Of a DNA stretch of 64,000 nucleotides, positions 42,012 through 56,030 are shown one piece after another. Below the pieces are notes generated by a model. It was not told the DNA's origin and did not search any database. It worked only from the letters and a program-made list of their open reading frames with translations. The translations under genes and the position numbers were made by a program. Origin of the DNA: a virus. Its lineage: Duplodnaviria; Caudoviricetes. The stretch covers positions 18,781-82,780 of the IMG/VR virus record IMGVR_UViG_3300033073_000489. The stretch is one strand, 5' to 3'. How positions within the stretch are numbered: the first letter of the stretch is position 1; each line of letters opens with the position of its first letter.

Positions 42012-42014
42012 ATA

Positions 42015-42628: not shown

Positions 42629-42632
42629 AAAT

Positions 42633-42709
42633 TGGTTGCGGAGGCTGGATTCGAACCAGCGATTCTTGGCTTATGAGACCAAGCGGATAGACCACTTCCA
42701 TACACCGCG
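42633..42709 (-). tRNA. tRNA-Met(CAU), initiator-like
   Basis: C1:A72 mismatch, loop CUCAUAA; lacks the three G:C anticodon-stem pairs. Confidence 0.8.
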
Positions 42710-42711
42710 AT

Positions 42712-42992: not shown

Positions 42993-42993
42993 T

Positions 42994-43167
42994 TTACTCA
43001 GCAGCCTTGCGTTCTGCTTTAGATTTGACAACCACACGCGATGCAAGCTCTGCACCGATCATTGCGTGTTTCCATGCATGTCGATCTTCTGCGTTTCGAA
43101 ATTTTCCTAATGCAAGCATTGTTTTTGTTGGCTTGCTCATTTTGTAAGTTGCTGTTGGTTTTAGCAT
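42994..43167 (-). CDS. Small basic hypothetical protein (57 aa)
   Basis: Manual ORF MLKPTATYKMSKPTKTMLAL...KAAE. Confidence 0.6.
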   Translation of the reverse strand: MLKPTATYKMSKPTKTMLALGKFRNAEDRHAWKHAMIGAELASRVVVKSKAERKAAE

Positions 43168-43177
43168 TTTGGTCCTT

Positions 43178-43185
43178 TATAAATA
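43178..43185 (+). promoter_or_regulatory. T4-type late promoter
   Basis: TATAAATA 5 nt before ATG 43191. Confidence 0.6.
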
Positions 43186-43190
43186 ACGTT

Positions 43191-43994
43191 ATGCTTGATT
43201 ATACATTCCATAGACTGAATCACCGCAATAAAACGGAACAATGGCATCAATCTGATAGAGAAGATCAATATAAGACTGAAAATGTTTTCGGTCCTAATAT
43301 ATATACACCTGAATCATTTGACTATAAATTTAACAGTTACGGTTTTCGCTGTGACGAGTTTGATTTGCCTAGTGATGTGCCTATTGTATTTTTAGGTTGC
43401 AGTTTTACAGAAGGTGAAGGCCTACCAGTTGATAAGACTTGGGCGTATGTTCTACTAGAACACATAAGAAACAAAACTAAAAAGAACATTCCGTTTTGGA
43501 ATCTGGCTATATCTGGCGGAAGCACTGATATTAATGCAGGTGTTCTTGCTAATTTTATTGATCAACTTCGTCCTAGATATGTTTTTTATCTTCGACCACC
43601 GTGGATGCGTAGAGCAATCTTTGTAGAAAAAGATCATCTTCAAAACTGGATCCCTGGCTATCTTGGCTCTCCCCATCCATGGATGCTACCTACACACTTC
43701 ACAGAAACTCTAATCCACGAAGATTTTGCAATACAACAAGCTGATCGCAGTCTAACTATAATTGACTTACTTGCAGAAAGATACAACACTAAAGTCTATC
43801 ACTTTCCGTGGCAATTAGGTGAGTCTGAAAATGCAATACAGCCTTCTATCAATAGATTGAAAAATTTTTACAAATTATCAGTGCCTTGGTTAGAAAATAT
43901 AGATATGGCGCGAGATTCTCTGCATCCCGGACCAGCTACTCACAAAATGGTTGCTGATCGTCTGTGGGAGTTTGATGTGAAACATTTATTTTAA
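43191..43994 (+). CDS. SGNH-like hypothetical protein (lone plus-strand gene in the tRNA array)
   Basis: YKFNSYGFR, FLGCSFTEG (block I), NLAISG, ARDSLHPG (DxxH). Confidence 0.7.
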   Translation: MLDYTFHRLNHRNKTEQWHQSDREDQYKTENVFGPNIYTPESFDYKFNSYGFRCDEFDLPSDVPIVFLGCSFTEGEGLPVDKTWAYVLLEHIRNKTKKNIPFWNLAISGGSTDINAGVLANFIDQLRPRYVFYLRPPWMRRAIFVEKDHLQNWIPGYLGSPHPWMLPTHFTETLIHEDFAIQQADRSLTIIDLLAERYNTKVYHFPWQLGESENAIQPSINRLKNFYKLSVPWLENIDMARDSLHPGPATHKMVADRLWEFDVKHLF

Positions 43995-43995
43995 A

Positions 43996-44072
43996 TGGCT
44001 GGCATACCTGGGCTCGAACCAGGGACCCTTTGATTAACAGTCAAATGCTACTACCAACTGAGCTATATGCCA
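43996..44072 (-). tRNA. tRNA-Asn(GUU)
   Basis: U1-A72, loop CUGUUAA, G73. Confidence 0.92.
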
Positions 44073-44078
44073 ATAACC

Positions 44079-44168
44079 TGGCGGAGTGACTGGGACTTGA
44101 ACCCAGAAGCCTGCTTTCGCAAACCGACGGATTAGCAATCCGCTCCAATACCATTATGGGACCACTCC
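44079..44168 (-). tRNA. tRNA-Ser(GCU)
   Basis: Long extra arm, G73. Confidence 0.92.
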
Positions 44169-44174
44169 AATGTT

Positions 44175-44259
44175 TGGTGCGCCTAGCCGGAATCGAACCA
44201 GCACGCCTTACGGCGGGAGATTTTAAGTCTCCTGTGTCTACCTATTTCACCATAGGCGC
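44175..44259 (-). tRNA. tRNA-Leu(UAA)
   Basis: Loop CUUAAAA, long extra arm, A73. Confidence 0.93.
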
Positions 44260-44265
44260 ATAATC

Positions 44266-44466
44266 TTATATTCTACGCTTTTTCCACGTATAGTCAATAC
44301 CATCTGGGCATTTTCCATCTTCGATAGAGTCCGCACCAAACATACCGACAATTTCCATTCCGTTACCACTTATGGTGACAAAAATTCCTAATTCCTTAGC
44401 ATAAGCCATTGCTTGATCTAAGTTAACGAATTCTGTTTCTTCTTCTTTGTTTATTACTTTATACAT
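44266..44466 (-). CDS. Small hypothetical protein
   Basis: 66 aa, EIVGMFGADSI...YTWKKRR. Confidence 0.65.
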   Translation of the reverse strand: MYKVINKEEETEFVNLDQAMAYAKELGIFVTISGNGMEIVGMFGADSIEDGKCPDGIDYTWKKRRI

Positions 44467-44517
44467 TGTTAATTTTACTTTCTTTTCTCTCTCATCACAA
44501 CAATGACGACATTAATT

Positions 44518-44591
44518 TGGCATCCCGGCAGGGACTCGAACCCCGACCAACAGTTTTGGAGACTGGTATGCTGCCATTACACTACCGAGAT
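44518..44591 (-). tRNA. tRNA-Trp(CCA)
   Basis: Loop CUCCAAA, G73. Confidence 0.9.
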
Positions 44592-44598
44592 ATAAATG

Positions 44599-44740
44599 AA
44601 TTTGTTTACCGCTACACGCTGTCCAAGTCGTGCGCTGAACTTACGCTTTGTAAGTCTGTCACACGCATCAGGTTCATTAGAAAGTGTCTTGGGCGACTCT
44701 CTAATCACATATGGTATCCGTGTGCCCACATAAACAAAAC
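44599..44740 (-). ncRNA. Candidate ~140-nt structured RNA
   Basis: Closing stem UUUGUUUAU/GUAAACAAA; hairpins ACUUAC/GUAAGU and UUAGA/UCUAA. Confidence 0.5.
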
Positions 44741-44816
44741 TGGCGCCCCGTAGGGGTTTCGATCCCCTTACCTCCGCAGTGACAGTGCGGTGCTCTCCCG
44801 ATTGAGCTAACAGAGC
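44741..44816 (-). tRNA. tRNA-Asp(GUC)
   Basis: Loop CUGUCAC, G73; T loop AUCGAAA. Confidence 0.88.
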
Positions 44817-44821
44817 TAATA

Positions 44822-44911
44822 TGGCGGAAACGGTGAGATTCGAACTCACGGAGCATTTCTACTCGGCAGTTTTCAAGACTGCTGCAATAAACCGGACTCT
44901 GCCACATTTCC
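44822..44911 (-). tRNA. tRNA-Ser(UGA)
   Basis: Loop CUUGAAA, long extra arm, G73. Confidence 0.93.
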
Positions 44912-44918
44912 GTGTATT

Positions 44919-45004
44919 TGGTGGAGACGACTGGACTTGAACCAGTAATGCCATAAGGCGGCGGATTTACAGTCCACTGGGGTTACCAATTTTCCTACAT
45001 CTCC
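44919..45004 (-). tRNA. tRNA-Tyr(GUA)
   Basis: Loop CUGUAAA, long extra arm. Confidence 0.92.
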
Positions 45005-45008
45005 ATAT

Positions 45009-45091
45009 TGGTGCCCCAGGACGGACTCGAACCGTCACGCTCGCGCACTGGCTTCTAAGACCAGCGTGTCTACCAATTTCACCACCAGGGC
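45009..45091 (-). tRNA. tRNA-Leu(UAG)
   Basis: Loop CUUAGAA. Confidence 0.93.
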
Positions 45092-45100
45092 ATAAACTTT

Positions 45101-45223
45101 CCATTGTTGAATATTCTGCACTATTTGCCTATTCTCAACAGCTTTACTCGAGTTTACTGTTTATTGAATAAGTTACATAACGCACGATCTAAGCCTCTGA
45201 GCTTACAGAATACTCAACAATGG
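45101..45223 (-). ncRNA. Structured spacer whose 18-bp stem begins with the CCA of tRNA-Glu
   Basis: CCAUUGUUGAGUAUUCUG / CAGAAUAUUCAACAAUGG with two internal hairpins. Confidence 0.65.
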
Positions 45224-45295
45224 AGACCCATAGGAGAATCGAACTCCTCTTGCCAGGATGAAAACCTAGTGTCCTAACCGATAGACGAATGGGTC
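45221..45295 (-). tRNA. tRNA-Glu(UUC)
   Basis: Loop UUUUCAU. Confidence 0.9.
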
Positions 45296-45350
45296 ATTGT
45301 CACTTCAAATTTTTAAGGAACGTTGCTAACAGTTGCTAGCGTATGTATCT

Positions 45351-45379
45351 ATTATATAGCTTAAATGCAGTATTGTCAA
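45351..45379 (-). promoter_or_regulatory. Internal sigma70-type promoter of the tRNA array
   Basis: TTGACA-N17-TATAAT. Confidence 0.85.
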
Positions 45380-45410
45380 CTACTTTTTGGCTAAACTAAC
45401 AAATATATTT

Positions 45411-45484
45411 TGGTGCTCTTAGAAAGAATCGAACTTTCATTACCTCCATACCAAAGAGGCGTTCTACCATTTAACTATAAGAGC
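45411..45484 (-). tRNA. tRNA-Thr(GGU)
   Basis: Loop UUGGUAU. Confidence 0.88.
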
Positions 45485-45488
45485 AAAA

Positions 45489-45597
45489 CAGGATGATGTA
45501 GTATTGCCGGGAATCGAACCCCAATTTCAACTACGGTCCCCAATTGGACGGCCTGGCAGAACAATGGCGCCAAAAAGTGTTTGCTGGATTCATCCTA
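45489..45597 (-). ncRNA. CAGCAA-scaffold RNA copy E (partial tRNA-like insert)
   Basis: AGGAUGA-AUC-CAGCAA...UCAUCCUG; insert has GGG-UUCGAUU-CCC. Confidence 0.75.
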
Positions 45598-45601
45598 AAC
45601 T

Positions 45602-45676
45602 TGGCCGGGCCTGAGAGGATCGAACTCCCACCCTCTGGTTCGAAGCCAGAGATGATATCCATTTCACCAAAGCCCG
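45602..45676 (-). tRNA. tRNA-Arg(UCG)
   Basis: Loop CUUCGAA. Confidence 0.88.
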
Positions 45677-45683
45677 AAATACA

Positions 45684-45761
45684 TGGTGCCCCATCTCTGA
45701 TTCGAACAGAGAGAACTTCTCCTTTTGAGAGAGACGACTTTACCAATTTGTCCAATGGGGC
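45684..45761 (-). tRNA. tRNA-Leu(CAA), short extra arm
   Basis: Loop CUCAAAA; only a 6-nt variable region. Confidence 0.82.
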
Positions 45762-45768
45762 ATTATAG

Positions 45769-45929
45769 GTTTTCGAAGTGCCCAACTATCCTCCTGGGAA
45801 GACTCGCTGGATTGTCTCGAACAGGCAAGTTTAAACAAACCGGCTTCAGTCATACTGTAGTGTCAACACAGTCAACCCCACTGTGCCTAGACTGGCAGGG
45901 ACTCAAACCCATCGTCTAACTTCGAAACT
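45769..45929 (-). ncRNA. Candidate ~160-nt structured RNA with T-arm-like element
   Basis: Closing stem GUUUCGAAGU/ACUUCGAAAAC; GGG-UUUGAGU-CCC; GCACAGU/ACUGUGU. Confidence 0.55.
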
Positions 45930-46018
45930 TGGAGGAGGGATAGTAGAATCGAACTCTAACCGCTTTCGCAGTCCATCTGTTTTCAAGACAGTGCTGGGCC
46001 CAGCCCAGATAACCCTCC
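45930..46018 (-). tRNA. Atypical tRNA-Ser(UGA)
   Basis: Loop CUUGAAA, long extra arm, CUGGG/CCCAG D stem, bulged T stem, U73. Confidence 0.65.
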
Positions 46019-46109
46019 ATAATAAAAACGCACTCGTCACTTTTCACGACGGTGGTGTGCAGTCCTTACAACCTAACTTATAGCTAGGTCAAGTGCGTTT
46101 TTATTATGG
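46017..46109 (-). ncRNA. Structured spacer pairing the upstream tRNA CCA with the downstream tRNA 5' GG
   Basis: CCAUAAUAAAAACGCACU / AGUGCGUUUUUAUUAUGG, perfect 18 bp. Confidence 0.7.
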
Positions 46110-46227
46110 CCCCGCCCCGTGGATTCGAACCACGATCTCGTCCTTGACATGGAATTGTGTATTATGCTGACTGTATCCTTAACAGGATAACCTTTTAATA
46201 CGTGTGCTACCATTACACCAAGGCGGG
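46107..46227 (-). tRNA. 121-nt tRNA-like gene with expanded anticodon domain
   Basis: Normal acceptor, D and T arms, G73-CCA; insert carries UAUCC-UGUUAA-GGAUA and UCC-AUGUCAA-GGA. Confidence 0.7.
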
Positions 46228-46235
46228 TTAAATTG

Positions 46236-46310
46236 TGGTCTCGCCTGCAGGAATCGAACCCACATTCACAGGGTAGAAGCCTATTGTATTTTCCATTATA
46301 CGAAAGCGAG
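46236..46310 (-). tRNA. tRNA-Arg(UCU)
   Basis: Loop CUUCUAC. Confidence 0.88.
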
Positions 46311-46317
46311 AATTGAA

Positions 46318-46512
46318 TTTGTAAGCATTGCGTCCCTCATATCGCAAACATTTTCCCTTGTAATAAAGCCGGCAGGGTCAAGATACGTCATTACAGTTAC
46401 TCATCCAACGCTTCTATATTTGTGCTAGGGTATTGCGCCCCTCGTTGTTTACCTAATCTTTGGCTGGCCAGCTACTCGAGTTGGTGACTTTCACTTACTG
46501 ACACTTACAAAA
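46318..46512 (-). ncRNA. Candidate ~195-nt structured RNA
   Basis: Closing stem UUUGUAAG/CUUACAAA; AGGG-GCGCAAUA-CCCU, UGUAAUGA/UUAUUACA, UUGCG/CGCAA. Confidence 0.55.
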
Positions 46513-46514
46513 CT

Positions 46515-46589
46515 TGGCGCCCGCATATGGAATCGAACCACAATCCCCGGCTTCGTAGACCAGTGTATTATCCATTATACTATGCGGGC
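46515..46589 (-). tRNA. tRNA-Arg(ACG)
   Basis: Loop CUACGAA. Confidence 0.9.
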
Positions 46590-46597
46590 AAATTAAA

Positions 46598-46656
46598 CAG
46601 GATGCATTTACTTTTTTCCGAATAAAAGAAATGTAATGTTTGCTGTTAGCATCCTA
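46598..46656 (-). ncRNA. CAGCAA-scaffold RNA copy F (short)
   Basis: AGGAUGC-UAA-CAGCAA...GCAUCCUG. Confidence 0.75.
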
Positions 46657-46660
46657 AAAC

Positions 46661-46736
46661 TGGGGAGTTATATGAGGATCGAACTCATACTAGCGGAATC
46701 ACAACCCGCGGTGCAGACCACTACACTAATAACTCC
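46661..46736 (-). tRNA. tRNA-His(GUG)
   Basis: G-1:C73, loop UUGUGAU. Confidence 0.92.
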
Positions 46737-46744
46737 ATAGAACT

Positions 46745-46819
46745 TGGTAGTTCCTACTGGTGTCGAACCAGTCACCTCTACAATGTCAATGTAGCGTTCT
46801 ACCGATGAACTAAGGAACT
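46745..46819 (-). tRNA. tRNA-Val(GAC)
   Basis: Loop UUGACAU. Confidence 0.9.
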
Positions 46820-46821
46820 GT

Positions 46822-46899
46822 TGGTGCGGGATAGGAGATTCGAACTCCTTCTTGCTGGGTGGAAGCCAACTGTGCTAGGCCGTTAAACACTAATCACGC
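46822..46899 (-). tRNA. tRNA-Gly(UCC) variant
   Basis: Loop CUUCCAC; A73. Confidence 0.8.
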
Positions 46900-46905
46900 A
46901 TAACT

Positions 46906-46979
46906 TGGTGCGGGGTAAGGGAGTCGAACCCTTGACTAAACGTTGGCAACGTTTGATTTTACCGTTAAACTAACCACGC
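46906..46979 (-). tRNA. tRNA-Gly(GCC)
   Basis: Loop UUGCCAA; A73. Confidence 0.85.
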
Positions 46980-46986
46980 ATTAAAT

Positions 46987-47061
46987 TGGTAGCCATGGAC
47001 AATTTTGAAATGTCGACCCTCGCCTTATCAAGACGATGCTCTTCCTCTGAGCTACACGGCT
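46987..47061 (-). tRNA. tRNA-Ile(GAU) variant
   Basis: Loop UUGAUAA; atypical T arm GACAU-UUCAAAA-UUGUC. Confidence 0.78.
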
Positions 47062-47062
47062 A

Positions 47063-47136
47063 TGGTTCCTCCAACAAGAATTGAACTTGTAATGACCGGT
47101 TATCAGCCGATTGTTATACCATTTAACTATAGAGGA
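47063..47136 (-). tRNA. tRNA-Ile(GAU)
   Basis: Loop CUGAUAA. Confidence 0.88.
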
Positions 47137-47142
47137 ATAATT

Positions 47143-47217
47143 TGGTGGTGAAGGTGAGATTCGAACTCACACCTTGCTCCGTATGAAGGAGGTGCACAAC
47201 CATTATGCTACTTCACC
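47143..47217 (-). tRNA. tRNA-Met/Ile2(CAU)
   Basis: Loop UUCAUAC; identity not resolvable by eye. Confidence 0.82.
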
Positions 47218-47298
47218 ATATGGAAACACACTAGCCTGCAGGACTACTATTAACTCCACGGGTTCGCCGCTGTTAATAGGTAATGTGTTTTCATATGG
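47216..47298 (-). ncRNA. Structured spacer pairing the upstream tRNA CCA with the downstream tRNA 5' GG
   Basis: CCAUAUG-A-AAACACA / UGUGUUU-C-CAUAUGG plus CUAUUAAC/GUUAAUAG hairpin. Confidence 0.65.
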
Positions 47299-47370
47299 TC
47301 GGAGCACGGGGATTCGAACCCCGAACTGGCGGATTAAAAGTCCGCTGTGATACCATTTCACCATACTCCG
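47296..47370 (-). tRNA. tRNA-Lys(UUU)
   Basis: Loop CUUUUAA. Confidence 0.92.
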
Positions 47371-47374
47371 TATA

Positions 47375-47449
47375 TGGTCCCTCCAGACGGATTCGAACCG
47401 TCACCTCATCGGGTAAGAGCCGAGTATGCTACCATAACACCTCGAAGGG
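47375..47449 (-). tRNA. tRNA-Lys(CUU)
   Basis: Loop CUCUUAC. Confidence 0.85.
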
Positions 47450-47543
47450 ATAGCTTGTATTAAAAAGATCTTTAACATCTTACACTCAGTTAAAGAGTTC
47501 TTTAATGTGCCATCCCGGACCAATACGGAGTCTCAGGATGACA

Positions 47544-47567
47544 CTATCGTTTCATTGAACGTTTCAT
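47544..47567 (-). CDS. Micro-ORF MKRSMKR-amber followed by a hairpin
   Basis: GGAG SD 6 nt upstream; ATG AAA CGT TCA ATG AAA CGA TAG, then an 8-bp stem. Confidence 0.4.
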   Translation of the reverse strand: MKRSMKR

Positions 47568-47590
47568 GTCATTCTCCAAAAAAAAAAATG

Positions 47591-47666
47591 TGGTGCCGCC
47601 TCTAGGGATCGAACCTAGTTCCTCGGTGCTTCAAACCGGTGCTATGACCACATCAGCTAAAGCGGC
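47591..47666 (-). tRNA. tRNA-Phe(GAA)
   Basis: Loop UUGAAGC. Confidence 0.85.
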
Positions 47667-47674
47667 AAATAAAA

Positions 47675-47738
47675 CAGGATGTATTTTTACGGTTTAGATT
47701 AAAAGTCTAATGTATAAATTTTTGCTGTTAACATCCTA
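47675..47738 (-). ncRNA. CAGCAA-scaffold RNA copy G carrying a Lys(UUU)-type anticodon stem-loop
   Basis: AGGAUGU-UAA-CAGCAA...UUAGA-CUUUUAA-UCUAA...ACAUCCUG. Confidence 0.8.
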
Positions 47739-47743
47739 AAACT

Positions 47744-47817
47744 TGGTGCTCCATCGAGGAATCGAACCACGATTGCCGGACTACAAAACCGGAGTATTAC
47801 CATTATACTAATAGAGC
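47744..47817 (-). tRNA. tRNA-Thr(UGU) variant
   Basis: Loop UUUGUAG. Confidence 0.85.
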
Positions 47818-47824
47818 ATTAACT

Positions 47825-47902
47825 TGGTCTCCACGGTAGGATTCGAACCTACAGCCTCCTGACTCCAGATCAGGCCGTCTACCAGATTGACATTACGCAG
47901 AG
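47825..47902 (-). tRNA. tRNA-Pro(UGG) variant
   Basis: Loop UCUGGAG (C33). Confidence 0.8.
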
Positions 47903-47909
47903 ATAAACT

Positions 47910-47983
47910 TGGTGCTTCGTAAAGGAATCGAACCTCTATCTACGGTATGTAACACCGTGGCCCTGCCATTAGACGAACGAAGC
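47910..47983 (-). tRNA. tRNA-Val(UAC) variant
   Basis: Loop GUUACAU (G32). Confidence 0.82.
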
Positions 47984-47988
47984 ATATT

Positions 47989-48075
47989 TGGTGGATAGCA
48001 ACAGAATCGAACTGTTACCCTTTTCAGGGTAGACCGGTTTAGCAAACCAGCTCGTTACCATAAACACTACTATCC
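47989..48075 (-). tRNA. tRNA-Ser(GCU) variant
   Basis: Loop UUGCUAA, long extra arm, A73. Confidence 0.78.
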
Positions 48076-48081
48076 ATAACT

Positions 48082-48156
48082 TGGTGGAAGCCGAGGGAAT
48101 CGAACCCTTCTAGACACGATGCTTGCAAGGCAACGCCGTAGCCCACTACTGCCCCC
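48082..48156 (-). tRNA. tRNA-Ala(UGC) variant with reduced D arm
   Basis: G3:U70, D arm GUAG-UGGG-CUAC, loop CUUGCAA. Confidence 0.75.
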
Positions 48157-48162
48157 AAATTT

Positions 48163-48236
48163 TGGCACCCCCACCAGGATTCGAACCTGGAACGACTGAG
48201 TCAAAGTCAGTTGTGTTACCATTACACCATGGAGGA
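48163..48236 (-). tRNA. tRNA-Gln(UUG)
   Basis: Loop CUUUGAC, G73. Confidence 0.88.
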
Positions 48237-48247
48237 ACAGATTAAAA

Positions 48248-48371
48248 CAGGATAGAATTTAACATAGTGCTACCGTTACACCAAACACCGCCTAAGCGAT
48301 GCCGCGGAGTCGAACCGCTCCCTTACTTTTCAAGAGTAGTAGTTGTTATTAATTTTGCTGTTACTATCCTA
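48248..48371 (-). ncRNA. CAGCAA-scaffold RNA copy H, YrlA-like permuted tRNA mimic
   Basis: AGGAUAG/CUAUCCU encloses UACU-CUUGAAA-AGUA, T arm GCGG-UUCGACU-CCGC, closed acceptor GGCAUCGC-UUAG-GCGGUGUU and D arm GUG-UAACGGUAG-CAC. Confidence 0.85.
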
Positions 48372-48382
48372 AAACTTCTTTG

Positions 48383-48458
48383 CTCCGCATTTGAGAATCG
48401 AACTCAACTAACCACTGATTAACAGTCAGGTCCATGCACCTTGCTCGGATTTTGCGGA
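48383..48458 (-). tRNA. tRNA-Asn(GUU) variant without encoded CCA
   Basis: Loop CUGUUAA, G73; leader CUUCUUCGC pairs with trailer GCAAAGAAG. Confidence 0.65.
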
Positions 48459-48537
48459 GCGAAGAAGTCTTTGCATTAGTTTCTATATCCCCCATTGAAA
48501 CTAACAAACATTGAGTGTATTGCTACACTATTTGCCC

Positions 48538-48612
48538 TGGCGCCGTAGACGAGAATCGAACTCGCCTTAGTCGGATAGACAATCCGTTGCCCTCCCAGAG
48601 AACTACTACGGC
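48538..48612 (-). tRNA. tRNA-Asp(GUC) variant
   Basis: Loop UUGUCUA (U37), G73. Confidence 0.8.
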
Positions 48613-48617
48613 ATATA

Positions 48618-48695
48618 TGGTGCAGCCAAAGGACTCGAACCTTTGCGGGAAACTAGTATGCGGCGCACAGGGCGCCTACCCCATTCCATTGCTGC
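48618..48695 (-). ncRNA. Aberrant tRNA-like RNA (acceptor, T arm and CCA; no canonical D or anticodon arm)
   Basis: GCAGC/GCUGC-ACCA, AAAGG-UUCGAGU-CCUUU; internal GGCGC-CCUGU-GCGCC. Confidence 0.6.
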
Positions 48696-48700
48696 AAAAT

Positions 48701-48775
48701 TGGTATCGCGGACGGGAATCGAACCCGCCTCTTTGGCTTGAAGGGCCAAGGACCTACCCAGAAGTCCACCGCGAT
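48701..48775 (-). tRNA. tRNA-Glu(UUC) variant
   Basis: Loop CCUUCAA (C33), A73. Confidence 0.78.
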
Positions 48776-48780
48776 ATAAC

Positions 48781-48857
48781 TGGAACACCGGGTGGGACTC
48801 AAACCCACGGCTTTACGGATTTGCAATCCGCTACATTGGTCGCTCTGTCACCGGTGC
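48781..48857 (-). tRNA. tRNA-Cys(GCA)
   Basis: Loop UUGCAAA, U73. Confidence 0.88.
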
Positions 48858-48864
48858 ATACATA

Positions 48865-48952
48865 TGGTGGAGCCTGATGGAATCGAACCACTTGCCGCCA
48901 CCCCACTTAATAATGGCTACCGGGTTACAGCCGGCAATGGGGAACAAGCTCC
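48865..48952 (-). tRNA. Atypical D-armless tRNA-Tyr(GUA)-like RNA
   Basis: GGAGCUU/AGGCUCC-ACCA, CCGG-CUGUAAC-CCGG, long extra region; D region reduced to ~11 nt. Confidence 0.6.
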
Positions 48953-48960
48953 ATAATCTT

Positions 48961-49166
48961 CACACACTCTTTCGAATGTGTCGTATAAAATAAGCTAGTT
49001 CATCCCGTCAAAGGGGAAACGTTATACGATTCCTAACTTACTTTATACGCTACCTTTTTACGCATTCTAGTTATCGCCTAGAACTTACCATCCGGTAGGC
49101 CGCCCACATTAAGCCGATGTTTATAGTGCCAGCAGGGTCGCGTTCCCTATACACACTTTTTCGAAA
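48961..49166 (-). ncRNA. Candidate ~205-nt structured RNA at the head of the tRNA array
   Basis: Bracketed by UUCGAAARAGUGUGU direct repeats; hairpins UUCUAG/CUAGAA, AGGG/CCCU, UCCC/GGGA. Confidence 0.6.
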
Positions 49167-49170
49167 TCTT

Positions 49171-49208
49171 AAAAAGCAAAAACCCCAGGGTGTTTAGTCC
49201 TGGGGTCC
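49171..49208 (-). terminator. Attenuator terminator upstream of the tRNA array
   Basis: ACCCCAGG-ACUAAACAC-CCUGGGGU-UUUUGCUUUUU. Confidence 0.85.
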
Positions 49209-49231
49209 TTTTGGGTAAAATTGTGTAGTGT

Positions 49232-49381
49232 TTAGTTACACGATCCTCCAATGGACCCCGGGGTAATCCCCTCTGGTGTGCGATCATAAGACAGACTATT
49301 AATCGCTAACCAGCATGAGGGCATAAAGCCTACATGTTTGGCTATCGTATTAAATTGTTGTTGTCTGTTAAACGATTGCAT
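49232..49381 (-). CDS. Putative leader peptide (49 aa)
   Basis: MQSFNRQQQFNTIAKHVGFMPSCWLAINSLSYDRTPEGITPGSIGGSCN; contains CCGGGGUCC, complementary to the terminator 5' arm. Confidence 0.6.
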   Translation of the reverse strand: MQSFNRQQQFNTIAKHVGFMPSCWLAINSLSYDRTPEGITPGSIGGSCN

Positions 49382-49442
49382 TTTGTTTTCTCTTTAAAAT
49401 CCTTGTTTGTTAACAAGCACCATTGCTTGCTAACTAGTCTCT

Positions 49443-49471
49443 ATTGTAGTGCCTTTCGGCACCTATGTCAA
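49443..49471 (-). promoter_or_regulatory. sigma70 promoter P1 of the tRNA operon
   Basis: TTGACA-N17-TACAAT then AGAGACTAGTTAG; spacer hairpin GTGCC-GAAA-GGCAC. Confidence 0.85.
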
Positions 49472-49541
49472 CAACTTTTGGTAAATCTTTTTGTTGTATT
49501 TTTACAACGCTTAGAAGCACCTTGCTTGCTAACATGTCTCT

Positions 49542-49570
49542 ATTGTATAGTTATTTAGTTCCTGTGTCAA
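49542..49570 (-). promoter_or_regulatory. sigma70 promoter P2 of the tRNA operon
   Basis: TTGACA-N17-TACAAT then AGAGACATGTTAG. Confidence 0.85.
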
Positions 49571-49624
49571 CCTGGTTTTGCAAATTTGAGCAAAAAGATT
49601 GTGCTGACTATCTAACTAGTCTCT

Positions 49625-49653
49625 ATTGTATTGTATATAGTCTCTTCTGTCAA
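49625..49653 (-). promoter_or_regulatory. sigma70 promoter P3 of the tRNA operon
   Basis: TTGACA-N17-TACAAT then AGAGACTAGTTAG. Confidence 0.85.
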
Positions 49654-49709
49654 GACCTATGTTGAAATAGGCGAATTTTGTTGTTTTTTGACAACTGTAA
49701 ACTTTTGTT

Positions 49710-50330
49710 TTAAATCCTGCCCGGGTCGGTGAGCGACAGTTGTTCAAACCCCCACGACCGTTCGTTACAGCCGTTGCATTGATTACACCTTCCAATCTCC
49801 TGTGCCGAACAACTATGAGTGATGTAAAACAACGACTCTAGTTGTAACTGAGAACAAAGATCAACAATATGACTTTTATTTAATTTTGAAAGTGGTGCTT
49901 TAAATTTATCAGTCTCGGTGTAAGGGATTGGTTGCCAACCTACCATATGTTGCGGTAATTGTTGAATTAAACCAGTATATGCTCGATCAAATTGTAAGCG
50001 CCATGCATCATGAACACCAGATTTGACTTGTTGTTCTTCGGGCAAGGTGTTATTGCCCACAATTATCGGGTCAATGTATGGAAGGTCAAACATTGATCGA
50101 ACGTGGGCAATAACTGGTTTAGCAAAATGCTTAGACCCTTCTTTTCGCAAAACAGTAAGAGGAACAATGTCGTGAACTCCGCCTACCCGTCTATTTTCTT
50201 CTAATAACAAGTAATATAAAACTGCACTATCTAAGCCACCGCTTATAAAAATTGCAATCTTTAACGGGTCAAATGGCAACTCTAGTTCAAACGTTCTCCG
50301 ATCTGTTTCGCAACCACAAGCCAGTATCAT
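49710..50330 (-). CDS. QueC-like PP-loop ATPase
   Basis: ISGGLDS, APL..LNK, THSC...CNQCNGC. Confidence 0.7.
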   Translation of the reverse strand: MILACGCETDRRTFELELPFDPLKIAIFISGGLDSAVLYYLLLEENRRVGGVHDIVPLTVLRKEGSKHFAKPVIAHVRSMFDLPYIDPIIVGNNTLPEEQQVKSGVHDAWRLQFDRAYTGLIQQLPQHMVGWQPIPYTETDKFKAPLSKLNKSHIVDLCSQLQLESLFYITHSCSAQEIGRCNQCNGCNERSWGFEQLSLTDPGRI

Positions 50331-50335
50331 AGCGT

Positions 50336-50842
50336 TTAACTATTCAACACCTTAGCAACAGAGTTCATTACTGCGGCAATACGTCCAATGTCACGAAGTT
50401 GTTCTACTGTGTAGCCTTCCTTCTTGAGTGTGTCGTAATGGGCTTTCACACAAAAATGACACTTGCCAACAATACTTGCGGCAAGACTAAACGCTTCAAA
50501 GTTTGCCTTAGTAGTTCCGCCATGTGACGCAATAGCATTCATGCGTAACTGTGCTGGCAGGCCCTTTAGTTGTTCATCATCTGCCATTTCAACGTAAGGA
50601 TACCATACATTGTTCTGTGCCATAATGCTAGCGGCAGTCATTGCGGCTTCTGCATAAACTGGCGCATCTGCTAACATAATGCTTAGAACTTTGCCGTTGC
50701 CTGTTGCGGCCAATGCAGCCACAGCACAACCCATAGCAACATCTGGGTCCAGTGTGCTACGCAAAAGGACAGCGTCCAAGTTTAGTTTGGTGTCCTTTGC
50801 GTATTCTGGCAACGCACCTTTAATAGTGTCGTTGAATGCCAT
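50336..50842 (-). CDS. ahpD: Alkyl hydroperoxide reductase AhpD
   Basis: LPEYAKDTKLNL, CHFCVKAH. Confidence 0.9.
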   Translation of the reverse strand: MAFNDTIKGALPEYAKDTKLNLDAVLLRSTLDPDVAMGCAVAALAATGNGKVLSIMLADAPVYAEAAMTAASIMAQNNVWYPYVEMADDEQLKGLPAQLRMNAIASHGGTTKANFEAFSLAASIVGKCHFCVKAHYDTLKKEGYTVEQLRDIGRIAAVMNSVAKVLNS

Positions 50843-51381
50843 TATAGAGTCTCCCCGCCTACTGTGCGGTTACATGCACATAGCTCGCCTGTTTGTAGCG
50901 CATCTAGAACACGAAGTGTTTCTTCTGGGCTACGACCAACGTTCAAGTTGTTAACAGTAACGTGCTGGATAACGTTTTCTGGGTCAACGATGAATGTTGC
51001 GCGAAGTGCGGCACCTGCTGGAGCATAGAATACACCTAGTTGTTCGATCAAGCTCAACTCGCCGCGCTGTGTGTCTGCGAACTGTGTATGTGTAATCTTC
51101 TGTAGGTCTGGGTGTGCTTTTTGCCATGCTACTTTGCAGAACTCATTGTCTGTGCTACCTGTGAGCAATACTGCATCACGGTCAGCAAAGTCGCCTGCTA
51201 GTTTGTCATAGGCTACAATTTCTGTAGGACAAACGAATGTGAAGTCTTTTGGATAGTAAACGATTACTTTCCACTTGCCAGCAAAACTTTCATCGGTAAT
51301 ATCGAAGAAAGCATCTTCTGGTTGTCCTGGCTTAACACCAGTAATTGCGAATTTTTCTAATTTATGTCCAACTGTTTTCAT
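50842..51381 (-). CDS. ahpC: Peroxiredoxin AhpC
   Basis: YPKDFTFVCPTE, VGRSPEETLRVLDALQT. Confidence 0.95.
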   Translation of the reverse strand: MKTVGHKLEKFAITGVKPGQPEDAFFDITDESFAGKWKVIVYYPKDFTFVCPTEIVAYDKLAGDFADRDAVLLTGSTDNEFCKVAWQKAHPDLQKITHTQFADTQRGELSLIEQLGVFYAPAGAALRATFIVDPENVIQHVTVNNLNVGRSPEETLRVLDALQTGELCACNRTVGGETL

Positions 51382-51528
51382 ATCATTCTCCTTTTAGTGT
51401 GTGTTGAAAACTTTAAGAACTGTTTGTTCCATGTTCTTATTGTAATAGTATTTAATAATTAAATCAACGGTTTTTATAGATTTTTTCAATAATTATTTTA
51501 ATAACGCTTATAGGAAAAATCAATAACA

Positions 51529-51550
51529 AAAAGGGCCCGAAGGCCCTTTT
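51529..51550 (-). terminator. Intrinsic terminator
   Basis: AAAAGGGCC-UUCG-GGCCCTTTT. Confidence 0.85.
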
Positions 51551-51564
51551 GAATCTAAGTTTGA

Positions 51565-52017
51565 TTAGAACGAATATTTCAAACCAGCAGTTACAACGTT
51601 ACCGTCGAACGAGCTAACACGGTTCTGACCGTATTGACGATCAACTGACAAAGTTGCCGCTACATTTTTTGCAAGCGGAGCAACTGCGCCAACACCAACT
51701 GTGACAGCCGAACCGTCTTCGCCAGTTTGGTTATTCAAGTAAGCATAGCCAACACGGCCTGTTAGGCTAACTGGACCTGCTTTGAATACCTCACGACTAC
51801 CGACCAATGTAACACGAGTTTGGTCGTTAGCTTCGCGATTGAAGCGGCTAAGACCTGCGGTTACATTGTAAGCGCCAAAGTTCTCACCAACGGTGACACC
51901 ATAACCATAACGGTTTGGATTTGGAGTTGTTTGGTCAACTGCGGTAACGCCTACTTCGATTGCTGAAGCTGCGATTGCGGCTGTTGCCAAGATTGTTGCG
52001 ATTGCAAATTTTTTCAT
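51565..52017 (-). CDS. Outer-membrane beta-barrel protein
   Basis: Signal peptide, alternating beta strands, C-terminal KYSF. Confidence 0.8.
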   Translation of the reverse strand: MKKFAIATILATAAIAASAIEVGVTAVDQTTPNPNRYGYGVTVGENFGAYNVTAGLSRFNREANDQTRVTLVGSREVFKAGPVSLTGRVGYAYLNNQTGEDGSAVTVGVGAVAPLAKNVAATLSVDRQYGQNRVSSFDGNVVTAGLKYSF

Positions 52018-52101
52018 AATACTTCCTTTAAAACATGACTCTGTGTCATTGCGTTATTATATAGTAGTAAAACTACAAGAGCAAGATATTTTCACTCCAA
52101 A

Positions 52102-52674
52102 TTAACTATACTCAAATGGTGTGCTAGGGTGTCCATAGTCTACCTTAATGTCATCGCCTTTAATGTTATCATACTCTGTATAATAAGACTCATTTGGCTT
52201 TACTTCATGCCAGTCATTGTATTTGATTTGAGCTAGCATGACTTCCTTTTTACTCAAGAGATCACAAATAATAAATGTGCTAGAACATCGACCTTGGATA
52301 GTTTTAAATGGGCTATGTTTGTATTCGTTTTGTAACAGTCCTTTATGGATGCCACTACCGGGACGAAACATAATCCGTGTGATGCCCAACTTCTGATTGC
52401 GAAGTCTAAATTTATCGTAGATGGTGAGTTCTGTTAATGTAGCTTCGTTGTCATCGCTAACACGCAGGAGTGCGTTCTTAACTTTGATGCTACCTTTGGT
52501 ATGACTGTTGTCGGGTGTTTCCTTAGTGCTCCAAGGAATGCTACAGTCTACATGATTGACATATAATGTCTCCCCATGAAATTTTAAGACCCACATGGGA
52601 ACAGTTTGGTCTTCTAAGTGTTTTTTATTAAAATGGAACACTACGTCCTTACAAGCATATTCAATCTATTTCAT
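52102..52674 (-). CDS. Conserved-looking phage protein with in-frame TAG at codon 3
   Basis: GGAGA-N6-ATG AAA TAG ATT GAA TAT GCT TGT AAG GAC GTA GTG TTC CAT, in frame with track ORF 52102-52641. Confidence 0.6.
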
Positions 52675-52677
52675 TTT

Positions 52678-52824
52678 TTATCTCCAAGTTTTTTGTGCGA
52701 TCCAATGTTGGATCTCCTGAACCTTCCATGCTAGCCCCCATGGCAACATGAAAGGAATTTTATTTCCATTAGGAGTATACATAGTTTTACCATCGTTGTC
52801 GACGCCCATCAATCCAATAAACAT
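52678..52824 (-). CDS. Small hypothetical protein (48 aa)
   Basis: GGGAGA SD; MFIGLMGVDNDGK...KTWR. Confidence 0.55.
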   Translation of the reverse strand: MFIGLMGVDNDGKTMYTPNGNKIPFMLPWGLAWKVQEIQHWIAQKTWR

Positions 52825-53011
52825 AAGTTTCTCCCTTGTTGGATATTTAGTATAACATCTTATTTAAAATAAGCAAGAACGGCTTTTATCAAAAGTAAGG
52901 CTCCGAATATTGCCATTAAGCAAATTCCCCAAATGATCATTATAGCTTTAATAATTCCGTTATCTGCTAATCTATATAGCCATCGTTGATGTGTTGGTTT
53001 ATCGTGGTGAC

Positions 53012-53794
53012 TCATCTTCCGGTCCATATTTTTGGCTCTGCATCTCTTCTTCTTTGTTCCTCAGTCTTAGGCATCCAACCAGTTCCTAAGTGCGGATATT
53101 TCTGTATACGATCTTCTACCACTAAAGCAAATGCTACTCCAACGGATGATGCAAGGAATAGAGCGCCTACTCCTAATGCAATATCAATATGTATACGGTC
53201 CATACGCTTTCTACGTTTAAGTCTAGCCGCATACTCATCTTTCATTTGTTTGGCAATGAGCACTTCTTGCTCAGCCCCCATTACTTTCATCATCTCAGAT
53301 ACTTCAGTGTATAGTGCGCCTAGCTCTGGAGGACTTTGATAAACCATTAGTTCACGAAGTTCTGTCCCCATTTGCTCTAATTGCTTACGCATTAGAATAC
53401 GTTGCAAGGCACGTTTGCCTATACTAGCATCACCTGTGTAGACTTCGTTATGGGCACGTTTTTCTTCTTCGTTAAAAATAGCAAGACACTTGTAATAGTT
53501 GTCGTAGTATTGACCTAAGTGTTCGCCAATCTCTGCGTAGACGCCAGTTGTTTCTCCAGCGTTAGCTTTTTTGTTAAGTTCAATAACTTCATTCTTTTGT
53601 TTAATAAAGTTATTCTTTTGTTCAACCGTAGGAGGTTTGTCTGGAGGATGCAATTTCTTAAATTGCTCATCCATATCTTTGATGACGTCCTTAACTTCCC
53701 CGGCCGCACCTTTAATATCTCTATATAGTTTACACCCTGCCTTAACTGCTGAAACCGCTCCGTTAGCAAGGGCAAATAGCGTCATTGGATCCAT
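53012..53794 (-). CDS. Coiled-coil membrane-anchored hypothetical protein
   Basis: MDPMTLFALANGAVSAVK N-terminus, helical core, C-terminal TM segment. Confidence 0.7.
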   Translation of the reverse strand: MDPMTLFALANGAVSAVKAGCKLYRDIKGAAGEVKDVIKDMDEQFKKLHPPDKPPTVEQKNNFIKQKNEVIELNKKANAGETTGVYAEIGEHLGQYYDNYYKCLAIFNEEEKRAHNEVYTGDASIGKRALQRILMRKQLEQMGTELRELMVYQSPPELGALYTEVSEMMKVMGAEQEVLIAKQMKDEYAARLKRRKRMDRIHIDIALGVGALFLASSVGVAFALVVEDRIQKYPHLGTGWMPKTEEQRRRDAEPKIWTGR

Positions 53795-53831
53795 TATACC
53801 GCTCCTGGATCATAATACTATTATTTAATAA

Positions 53832-53853
53832 AAAAGGGCCCGAAGGCCCTTTT
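53832..53853 (-). terminator. Intrinsic terminator
   Basis: AAAAGGGCC-UUCG-GGCCCTTTT, same as 51529. Confidence 0.85.
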
Positions 53854-53873
53854 AGGATAGTTAAGTGCGTATA

Positions 53874-54638
53874 TTACGCAAATATTTCTAATGCAGTTCC
53901 GCACTCGACACAAAACTTAGCATGAGCTTTGTTTTGCTTGCCGCAAGTTACACACTTGGGCTTATGCTTAACTGTAACAGGTTTTACTACAGGTTTGTTA
54001 TCACCCAAGTCGCCGACTAGTTTCAACACAATGTTGTGAATAGTAGGATCAAGTGCGCCCATTGTAACTGTAGTGAAGCTCTGTGTTGACTTACTACCGG
54101 GAACAGTAATACCAGTTTCGTTCTTAAAGCTAGCGGCTTGTGCTGATACATTTACACTATTGAGTGTAGCACCGGATGCTGTAACAGAACTATAGGTTGC
54201 GCTCATTGGACCGGCCCAGTCTCCTGTGCTACCGCTAATACCACGAAGGGTAGTATTACTCCACAAAGGTTGGATGACAGGGCGTGAGATCTCAAATTGA
54301 TATTCGATGCGAACAAGGCCATCTTCTAGTTTAATGCCGCGTGGGCCGTCTTCGATTGCCTGTGTGCGTTCAATGAACTTAAATTTGTTACCTTCGGAGA
54401 GATTGCCGTTTTTAATCCAACGCTCTAAGTCGACAGTCCGACCCGGGTCTACAACCAATCCGCCGGGAACGACATTCTCTCCGTCGATAAACACATTTAC
54501 GACAGCACGAACAGTATTGAGGTTTTTGAGTAAGATGCTATATTCGCTTGCAAATGGAATATAGACTGTGTCCTTAAATTCACGTAGGACTTTTCCGTTG
54601 GCTTTTACGCTCGCCACGAGCTTTTGATTATACATCAT
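53874..54638 (-). CDS. Hypothetical protein with C-terminal zinc ribbon
   Basis: EYSILLKN N-domain; CVTCG...FCVECG. Confidence 0.75.
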   Translation of the reverse strand: MMYNQKLVASVKANGKVLREFKDTVYIPFASEYSILLKNLNTVRAVVNVFIDGENVVPGGLVVDPGRTVDLERWIKNGNLSEGNKFKFIERTQAIEDGPRGIKLEDGLVRIEYQFEISRPVIQPLWSNTTLRGISGSTGDWAGPMSATYSSVTASGATLNSVNVSAQAASFKNETGITVPGSKSTQSFTTVTMGALDPTIHNIVLKLVGDLGDNKPVVKPVTVKHKPKCVTCGKQNKAHAKFCVECGTALEIFA

Positions 54639-54723
54639 TTTTCTTCCTTTTTACTGGCTACACTCTAAAGCCATATTAATTTAAAGAGTGTTGGTTGCGG
54701 ACCTTCCGCAAATTTATTTAGTA

Positions 54724-54963
54724 TTACATTAGAGAACCAGGTATAACATTGAACAATGCATCTCCTGCTCTTTGATCAAAAGGAACACCGTTTCCTGCAA
54801 TATATTGTGCATCAGAACGTTCGTTCTGTCCTTGACCGACACCAATGTAGTATTTGAAGTTAGCTTCACCGGTTTGGCGGTATGTATCGCGTTCATGCTC
54901 TTGAACAATCTGCACAATGCCAATACACTCGTTACCTGCAAACCAAATTTGATTAGTAATCAT
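54724..54963 (-). CDS. Hypothetical protein
   Basis: 79 aa, CIGIVQ...KYYIG. Confidence 0.6.
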   Translation of the reverse strand: MITNQIWFAGNECIGIVQIVQEHERDTYRQTGEANFKYYIGVGQGQNERSDAQYIAGNGVPFDQRAGDALFNVIPGSLM

Positions 54964-54976
54964 ATAAAATGTTTAG

Positions 54977-55051
54977 TGGTGCGCTAGACAGGATTCGAAC
55001 CTGCTACACGGCGGTTTAGAGTCGCCTACCCTTCCAACGGGAGACTAGCGC
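54977..55051 (-). tRNA. Amber suppressor tRNA (anticodon CUA)
   Basis: GCGCUAG/CUAGCGC-ACCA, GGCGA-CUCUAAA-CCGCC, canonical T arm. Confidence 0.85.
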
Positions 55052-55058
55052 ACGTTAA

Positions 55059-56030
55059 TTACTTTTGAGCAAAGGGCCAAGCACCTGCTTCAACTTTTGC
55101 TGTTGTATAGCGATAACGTTCGTTGCCGCCATACTTGCGATCGTCTGTGCCTTTTTCAAAGCCTTCGCGGTAGTCACGACGGTCTTTACCAAAGTGGTCA
55201 TCAGTTGCATTGTAGCTACCTTGCCAACCTGCTGAATAGCCTGCATAGAACGGGCTGTTACCCAACTTAGGACCTGCATATACAGGCTTGCTACCGACTG
55301 CTGTAGACTGCACAGGCTTAGTGAACGCATCTTCCGGCTCAACGTTCAGTTCACCGATCACCTCGTAGCGGCAAGCACGACCCTTAGCTTGATTGTAGTC
55401 GCTTGGGATACTGACAACGTCACGTGGGTTAACCTTGACAATAACTGTGCGAGCACCACCGAAGCTAGACAAGTAGCTCATGCCACAGAAGTGCAAACCT
55501 GTTGAACAAGTTTCGTCTTTGTTGTCGTTAACTTCGTGGCGTTCCATCTCAACAACATTACCAACGGAGTTATCCATTGTGCCGCTATGAACGTCAAAGT
55601 AGTTATCACGAACTTTCTTGTATGCCAGGAAGTGGCCGTCTGGAGTAATCGGCAATGCGTTCTTTTCCAAGAAGCCATACAGTTCTGTAACTGCACGGTG
55701 ACTTGGGTTTTGATACAAGTTCTCCATGAAGTTAACCATTGGCTCAATTGGGAAGCCATCTTGCAACATTTGGATCATACGCACCGACAAGCCAGTGTTC
55801 AGTTCCTTACCTTTCCAGAACAACGTTTCACCTTGGATAGACACATTGCCTTGTCCGTAGTTCAACACGACCTTCTTAGGTTCGATAATATCGGGCAAGG
55901 CATCCCAGTCCTCTGCCTTGATTGCGTCCAACACCTTTTGATAAGTGATGTGCGTCTTGCTAACGGTGTGCGATTTATTGCCAATAACGACAACAATGTT
56001 ATTACCTTGAATCAAATATGGGTAAGCCAT
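55059..56030 (-). CDS. rIIB-like protein
   Basis: Start MAYPYL; PITPDGHFLAYKKV, CSTGLHFC, VKVNPRDVVSIPSDY...RACRYEV. Confidence 0.85.
   Translation of the reverse strand: MAYPYLIQGNNIVVVIGNKSHTVSKTHITYQKVLDAIKAEDWDALPDIIEPKKVVLNYGQGNVSIQGETLFWKGKELNTGLSVRMIQMLQDGFPIEPMVNFMENLYQNPSHRAVTELYGFLEKNALPITPDGHFLAYKKVRDNYFDVHSGTMDNSVGNVVEMERHEVNDNKDETCSTGLHFCGMSYLSSFGGARTVIVKVNPRDVVSIPSDYNQAKGRACRYEVIGELNVEPEDAFTKPVQSTAVGSKPVYAGPKLGNSPFYAGYSAGWQGSYNATDDHFGKDRRDYREGFEKGTDDRKYGGNERYRYTTAKVEAGAWPFAQK

Follow-up and report, generated by a model that had tools for sequence, protein, structure and literature searches.

A conserved leader with a covarying antiterminator and a peptide usually complete for all 20 amino acids, a putative ribosome-mediated attenuator, precedes the tRNA array of giant freshwater phages

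We analyzed a stretch of 64,000 nucleotides (referred to here as the window), which is part of the 82.8-kb IMG/VR viral record IMGVR_UViG_3300033073_000489 (positions 18,781 to 82,780; estimated completeness, 23%), and in it a leader element that stands in front of a tRNA array. A first-pass annotation made from the letters alone had described three near-consensus sigma70 promoters, a 49-codon open reading frame (ORF), a terminator, and a tRNA array in succession, and all of these were found where it had placed them, on the minus strand (Table 1). The window also contains genes for rIIA, rIIB, NAMPT, a DNA ligase, and a Ro-like RNA-binding protein, and we therefore assign it to a T4-like giant phage. 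The phages that carry the leader are a large family of uncultured giant freshwater phages.

Table 1. Coordinates of the leader element and of the features downstream of it, in window positions
Feature	Position	Strand	Remarks
Promoter P1	49653-49625	-	TTGACA-17-TACAAT, 11/12 match; own short 5' hairpin follows
Promoter P2	49570-49542	-	TTGACA-17-TACAAT, 11/12 match
Promoter P3 (proximal)	49471-49443	-	TTGACA-17-TACAAT, 11/12 match; some 90 nt upstream of the ATG
5'-terminal stem-loop of the P3 transcript	49434-49409	-	11 bp, 4-nt loop; predicted
Leader ORF	49381-49232	-	49 residues, all 20 amino acids, 36 distinct codons
ORF head, codons 1-37	49381-49271	-	to conserved ..DRTPE; all 20 amino acids; proposed sensing window
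ORF tail, codons 38-49 and stop TAA (49234-49232)	49270-49232	-	amino acids variable, RNA constrained
Helix A, 5' strand	49261-49253	-	CCGGGGUCC; complementary to GGACCCC-A-GG at 49208-49199
Helix B	49251-49211	-	49251-49243 with 49221-49211; encloses hairpin C
Hairpin C	49241-49223	-	holds the stop codon
Intrinsic terminator	49208-49171	-	stem 49206-49199 / 49189-49182, loop 49198-49190, U tract 49181-49171
Conserved structured RNA	49165-48954	-	about 210 nt; first read-through product in this phage
tRNA-Tyr-like gene	48953-48868	-	anticodon loop CUGUAAC, long extra arm, CCA end, aberrant D region; not called by ARAGORN
First tRNA block	48857-45411	-	24 ARAGORN tRNAs; ahead of the next sigma70 promoter at 45379

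Relatives of the leader were recovered with the 49-residue peptide, which retrieved 19 viral loci when used as a single sequence and 27 when used as an alignment, and from metagenomes, where 80 of 124 loci were kept. The combined sample comprised 115 related loci with 80 distinct leader DNA sequences. A second sample consisted of 93 distinct family peptides, and the tests for translation ran across 23 to 93 homologues. A database of 5.8 billion proteins held 437 homologues of the leader peptide, none with an informative name; the homologues listed were about 46 to 53 residues long. The peptide matched nothing in Pfam or PHROGs, and a distant-mode blastn search of the GenBank phage collection with positions 48860 to 49720 gave no match. 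An Rfam search of positions 38000 to 56000 at an E value of up to 1 detected only tRNAs and weak tRNA-like hits, with no match to the leader over 49160 to 49460 and no T-box.

Near-consensus sigma70 promoters are frequent across the minus strand of the window, a pattern to be expected if early genes there are transcribed by the host RNA polymerase. The three in front of the leader ORF are members of one 64-nt direct-repeat family (D1). Tandem promoters were kept in 13 of 13 relatives checked, with the proximal one at -74 to -91 in all of them. Every relative locus that was long enough displayed the same order. Tandem consensus promoters come first, two to four in number (L008 has up to five promoter-like matches), followed by a 5' hairpin, the leader ORF, its terminator, and finally the tRNA array, which began 400 to 940 nt after the ORF start in 13 of 13 loci. 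The hairpin lies at the same 5' place in the relatives and is built from different sequences (alignment A1).

Several features of the alignments indicate that the leader ORF is translated. The ATG is invariant across relatives, indels in the first two thirds of the ORF are multiples of three, and codons of invariant residues vary only synonymously: one Leu is encoded by five different codons, another Leu by four, and Ile, Asn, Ser, Arg, and Pro residues by two each. The conserved head reads approximately G-F/V-M-P-S-x-W-L-A-I-N...S-L-x-x-D-R-T-P-E, in which W24, N28, D33, R34, and P36 are invariant. Past the conserved Glu, the amino acids diverge and the reading frame shifts between subfamilies, while the nucleotides are retained; GGGUCC is read in frame 0, 1, or 2 in 54, 25, and 1 of the 80 leaders, respectively. 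The constraint thus acts on the RNA in the tail and on the protein in the head. Two hairpins were also predicted within the head, where the changes are one-sided and synonymous only. Modeling of the peptide with AlphaFold2 on a 40-sequence alignment gave a predicted local distance difference test (pLDDT) score of 55.7 and no secondary structure; such an absence of predicted fold would fit a leader peptide, as weak evidence. The mean relative synonymous codon usage of the leader was 1.01, versus 1.21 +/- 0.07 for the phage's own genes (P, ~0.008), a difference that stems partly from the RNA-constrained tail and was not used as evidence.

The amino acid content of the peptide is unusual. The window copy uses all 20 amino acids and 36 different codons, as the first-pass annotation had counted; there the property was rated as only suggestive, and the family now gives it firmer ground. 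All 20 residues occur in 74 of the 93 family peptides, while 18 contain 19 and one contains 18. After shuffling within alignment columns, the number of complete peptides was 22.4 +/- 3.6, with a maximum of 36 in 2,000 shuffles. The same tendency is visible in the distinct DNA leaders (65 of 80 complete, 15 without one residue) and in the head alone (36 to 40 residues), which contains all 20 amino acids in 53 of the 93 peptides and 19 in another 30. For comparison, windows taken from the phage's own proteins are complete in 0.4% of cases at a length of 37 residues and in 3.5% at 49 residues. His, Tyr, Lys, and Phe are never absent and occupy 15 to 22 different sets of positions. Between sequences at least 80% identical, we counted relocations of His (8), Cys (10), Tyr (4), and Val (4), as illustrated by L034 and L050, which read PSSW...SLSYD and PSYW...SLSND. 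Column shuffling ignores relatedness, but kinship alone would not yield a residue that is always present at least once and at changing places. Judged from these alignments, completeness for all 20 residues is under clear selection across the family. Codon runs are absent; in place of the clustered regulatory codons of classical attenuators, each residue is nearly always present at least once.

The intrinsic terminator is kept in all relatives. In the window, its 8-bp GC-rich stem (ACCCCAGG / CCUGGGGU, 49206-49182; -14.3 kcal/mol) is followed by UUUUGCUUUUU. It had been proposed that CCGGGGUCC, within the ORF, pairs with the terminator 5' arm as an antiterminator, and the family bears this out: the pairing covaries, excludes the terminator, and is present in 80 of 80 leaders. 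From the alignment alone, RNAalifold chose the GGGUCC-GGACCC helix over the terminator, together with helix B. The antiterminator alignment paired 94.9% of cells, compared to 88.6% in shuffles, and its covariation score was 0.312, compared to 0.191; none of 500 shuffles reached either value. As a control, sliding the 3' partner lowered pairing to at most 66% of cells. Compensatory changes of four kinds were found. The seventh pair of helix A is G-C in 8, A-U in 14, and G.U in 1 of 23 sequences, with no mismatch; L052 and one more leader carry a paired insertion (GGGUUCC:GGAACCC); in L077 and L117, three positions are changed on both sides (GGGCUU:AAGCCC); and helix B carries compensatory changes of its own. 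Hairpin C is made of unrelated sequences in the relatives and always holds the stop codon, which falls 14 to 21 nt after helix A and 20 to 31 nt before GGACCC in 79 of 80 leaders.

An antiterminator rod is built jointly by helices A and B and hairpin C. This rod was the local minimum-energy fold in 23 of 23 sequences (-22 to -33 kcal/mol, versus -11 to -14 kcal/mol for the terminator hairpin). When RNA up to the terminator loop was folded, the minimum-energy structure paired the tail with the terminator 5' arm over 6 to 13 bp in all 80 distinct leaders. Since the rod and the terminator share GGACCC(C) (GGACCCC at 49208 to 49202 in the window), they are mutually exclusive. The flanking hairpins GGGG-AUUA-CCCC and GGUCC/GGAUC, which had been put forward as competitors of the antiterminator, are present in the window and are not kept across the family. 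In the full-length fold of the window sequence, the ribosome-binding region of the leader (49404 to 49392) pairs over 13 bp with 49177 to 49163, just past the U tract; according to this fold of the window copy, the pairing could mask the leader start in read-through transcripts.

We modeled the effect of a ribosome on ten leaders by deleting all RNA as far as 15 nt beyond the first base of the codon in the peptidyl (P) site and computing the ensemble probability of the terminator. With no ribosome, this probability was at most 0.4, i.e., the antiterminator was favored. It was generally low while the P site had advanced no further than about codon 35 (three leaders showed brief rises, up to 0.98, at codons 32 to 35) and approached 1.0 once the P site was at codons 36 to 39. 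The boundary moves with the end of the conserved head, also in leaders with insertions of one or two residues in the head. A delay in the head would therefore favor read-through, and timely arrival in the tail would favor termination.

These results suggest the following model, in which an early stable-RNA operon driven by host RNA polymerase would be headed by a ribosome-mediated transcription attenuator. Two to four tandem consensus promoters, three in the window, would fire into the leader of about 49 codons. If no ribosome is near the tail once the terminator 5' arm has been made, helices A and B would form, as would the stop-codon hairpin C, the rod would sequester the arm, and the polymerase would continue into the structured RNA and the tRNA genes. 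A ribosome that keeps pace, with its P site past about codons 36 to 39, would cover or unwind the 5' half of the rod; the 8-bp terminator could then form, and transcription would end at about 49171 to 49181. Since every amino acid is represented in the head (codons 1 to 37), slow reading of any one hungry codon should raise read-through. Phage tRNA output would thus be coupled to the current decoding capacity of the cell, and decoding restored by the phage tRNAs would provide negative feedback. Which way the switch turns, where the ribosome must stand, and what the physiological signal is are all inferred.

Downstream of the terminator lie genes with no sigma70 promoter of their own nearby. 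We found no sigma70-like site with at least 9 of 12 matches between 49170 and 48000 and none with at least 10 of 12 before 45379; in most relatives, no site with at least 10 of 12 matches occurs before the first tRNA. Two candidates of other types were examined by eye and rejected: a T4-type late promoter (TATAAATA), whose TATAAA-like string is unconserved and sits within the loop of a covarying hairpin, and a MotA-box promoter, where the TGCTT after the U tract is absent from relatives. About half of the relatives contain a second small ORF of 57 to 61 residues, absent from the window and without a known family, with a strong ribosome-binding site about 10 nt past the U tract (for example, L017:3218-3395, L012:3194-3350, and L053:1878-2051). 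Because it starts right past the U tract without a promoter of its own, this ORF would be transcribed only through the terminator. It would be hard to see a purpose in strong tandem promoters that fire into an efficient terminator without regulation.

In the window, the first product of read-through is a structured RNA of at least five helices that is conserved in all relatives. Of its 43 predicted pairs, 18 keep pairing via two-sided changes in nine sequences (alignment A5), and it includes a conserved hairpin loop, GCACUAUAAACAU, and the motif AACGGGCGG; Rfam gave no match to it at an E value of up to 1. The tRNA-Tyr-like gene that follows has a weak hit to the tRNA-Sec model (26.9 bits), and several relatives have a normal tRNA-Tyr as the first tRNA past the leader. 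ARAGORN called 41 tRNAs between 48857 and 39611. Further consensus sigma70 promoters lie inside the array, at 45379, 44297, 40467, and 39469 (minus strand), and therefore only the first block (48953 to 45411) would depend on the attenuator. Several of the gated tRNAs carry unusual anticodon loops. For amino acids with a tRNA in both blocks, the copies differ in the anticodon loop, and gated-block copies for Glu (48701-48775, loop CCUUCAA) and Pro (47825-47902, loop UCUGGAG) lack U33. A further tRNA-Sec model hit at 45934-46018 (minus strand; 45.3 bits, gathering score 47) was not called by ARAGORN. A tRNA with the amber-reading anticodon CUA, labeled Pyl by ARAGORN, lies outside the main array at 54977-55051 (minus strand). 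A weak match to the Y-RNA-like family YrlA at 39491-39607 (minus strand; 31 bits, E value of 0.002) adjoins a Ro-like gene at 37509-38918 (minus strand) that matches the PHROG "RNA-binding protein" phrog_850.

On the other side of the element, just upstream of the promoters, the window encodes an AhpC-like peroxiredoxin, an AhpD/CMD-like protein, and a QueC-like protein (49710-51381, minus strand). AhpC and CMD are similarly placed in the 368-kb relative L052 (877-2784). Three relatives of the QueC-like gene were found, none syntenic downstream and none with leader DNA. In L015, ARAGORN called a transfer-messenger RNA at 1175-1606, about 1.4 kb upstream of the leader.

The comparative evidence supports a reading of the element as a ribosome-mediated attenuator, as first proposed: the layout recurs in 115 loci, and the relatives combine compensatory variants of the antiterminator with peptide tails that have diverged. 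Alternatively, the ORF might encode an abundant functional small protein, with the hairpin an ordinary, partly leaky terminator and the rod mere structure at the 3' end of the mRNA. The head is indeed under strong purifying selection at the amino acid level, and the family is large and uniform in length. However, this explanation does not accommodate the retention of GGGUCC in three frames in covariation with the terminator 5' arm or the promoterless genes that begin directly past the U tract, and selection for all 20 residues at moving positions has no rationale in a folded protein. The peptide, moreover, has no predicted fold and no match in Pfam or PHROGs. We consider a small protein unlikely. 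A further possibility is that the terminated transcript of about 260 nt is itself the product, either a dual-function small RNA or a leader separated from the tRNA precursor at the rod by an RNase III-type cleavage, with no switching. In its favor, extra stable RNAs are a known feature of T4-type tRNA clusters, the leader RNA folds far better than shuffled sequence (z = -7.7), and the rod is long and conserved. Against it, the rod and the terminator are built on shared nucleotides and cannot coexist, and the ORF is clearly under coding selection; we rate this as the least probable of the alternatives.

A nascent-peptide arrest sensor of the TnaC, SecM, or SpeFL type would also place the decision at the ribosome: a ligand or factor would stall it in the head, and the stall position would set terminator versus antiterminator. 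The invariance of W24, N28, D33, R34, and P36 agrees with this, as does the location of the switch point at the end of the conserved motif. In the window copy, the Trp lies 12 residues before the Pro, a distance that we take to resemble the one in TnaC. A TnaC-like arrest peptide was nevertheless rejected, as the fixed Trp-Pro spacing is broken by insertions of one and two residues in subfamilies. In several relatives, GGGUCC begins 3 to 7 nt past the motif, where a ribosome stalled at the Pro would cover it, and stalling of this kind leaves the all-20 composition unexplained. An arrest sensor thus seems quite improbable. In our judgment, the element likely acts as a ribosome-mediated attenuator and responds to slow decoding at any codon.

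A number of points weigh against this attenuator, or limit what can be read from the data. The head peptide is conserved far beyond the needs of a composition sensor. It is therefore likely to have a second function, for instance through an effect of the nascent peptide or as a small protein, and it may overlap conserved hairpins. Completeness has exceptions, since Cys is missing in 12 and Val in 8 of the 93 peptides, and these are the only two residues ever missing. No conserved anti-antiterminator (1:2 pairing) was found in the family, and the local hairpins of the window that could sequester GGGUCC are not kept; untranslated RNA is therefore predicted to read through, unlike that of the trp leader. 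The ribosome model is one of equilibrium folding with an assumed leading edge at +15 nt. The lack of a promoter between the terminator and the genes holds for sigma70 sites only, as the scan does not bear on phage-specific middle or late promoters past the terminator. Finally, metatranscriptome contigs of relatives in Logan (X15-X18) are short pieces over 48000 to 49571, with none over 49620 to 50270, and one 226-nt contig spans the terminator. They show only that sequence of the relatives' region is present in RNA libraries; contigs of this kind cannot show ends, strand, or level, the gene in the uncovered interval is not conserved in relatives, and no conclusion was drawn from them.

In classical leader attenuators (trpL, hisL, pheL [PMC3082878], thrL, leuL, ilvL, and pheM of pheST), the position of the ribosome picks the antiterminator or the terminator. 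The phage element shares with them a promoter, a short ORF, and alternative antiterminator and terminator hairpins. The classical leaders, however, contain runs of one or a few regulatory codons in otherwise unconserved peptides, whereas the phage leader has no runs; they possess a 1:2 anti-antiterminator, so that untranslated RNA terminates, and they control biosynthetic or synthetase genes instead of tRNAs. TnaC, SecM, and SpeFL resemble the phage leader in being short and conserved in amino acid sequence (and, in the window copy, in the Trp about 12 residues before the Pro) but act on Rho or on translation initiation, whereas the phage leader precedes an intrinsic terminator and does not conserve the W-P spacing. 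The likeness to T-box RNAs is a functional analogy only: poor tRNA charging raises read-through of a leader terminator, but a T-box binds one specific uncharged tRNA directly and has no ORF.

By analogy, the closest known system is the upstream ORF (uORF) attenuator of mycobacterial whiB7. In whiB7 (wblC) of mycobacteria and other Actinobacteria, stalled translation of the uORF leads to an antiterminator and to read-through of an intrinsic terminator (PMC10274678). Starvation for most amino acids activates the gene, according to the composition of the uORF, which in Mycobacterium smegmatis contains 19 of the 20 amino acids, and a single Trp codon suffices for sensing Trp starvation (PMC10274678). 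Loss of the start codon raises basal expression and read-through (PMC10274678), an effect that matches the default-on prediction for the phage leader. Both elements place a translated uORF before an intrinsic terminator and would work similarly, but the phage element does not belong to that family. whiB7 lies on bacterial chromosomes, and its uORF controls a transcription factor, while the phage element is viral and gates tRNAs, and the two have no sequence relationship. The whiB7 uORF is variable in sequence, alanine enriched, and often lacks several amino acids, whereas the head of the phage leader is strongly conserved and completeness itself is selected. whiB7/wblC elements occur in Actinobacteria upstream of a WhiB7-family gene and have Ala-enriched uORFs; none of these traits applies to the phage element, whose window peptide has 2 Ala in 49 residues. 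The element is so far undescribed in the literature searched (full-text searches found no published description of it), and it differs from the classical members by completeness instead of codon runs.

We know of essentially nothing on how the expression of phage tRNA genes is controlled. Two papers present phage tRNA genes as now thought to offset host tRNA loss and tRNA-targeting defenses (eLife 2023, PMC10264068; Nature 2024, PMC11464382). We infer that the leader responds to tRNA depletion or cleavage. Tentatively, and at slightly less than an even chance, the leader may be a universal decoding-capacity sensor that detects depletion or cleavage of any host tRNA, switches on the gated replacement tRNAs, and throttles back on recovery; its triggers could be anticodon-nuclease defenses or the phage's own host shut-off. 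Such an element would be a simple sense-and-respond circuit, in which slow decoding leads to the making of tRNAs. As a natural attenuator with one of each amino acid, it would also make the question of the single hungry codon addressable for all 20 in one construct, and it could serve as a compact reporter of translation stress. If this is true, the leader would represent the first regulated tRNA counter-defense of a phage and the first attenuator selected for completeness of the amino acid alphabet.

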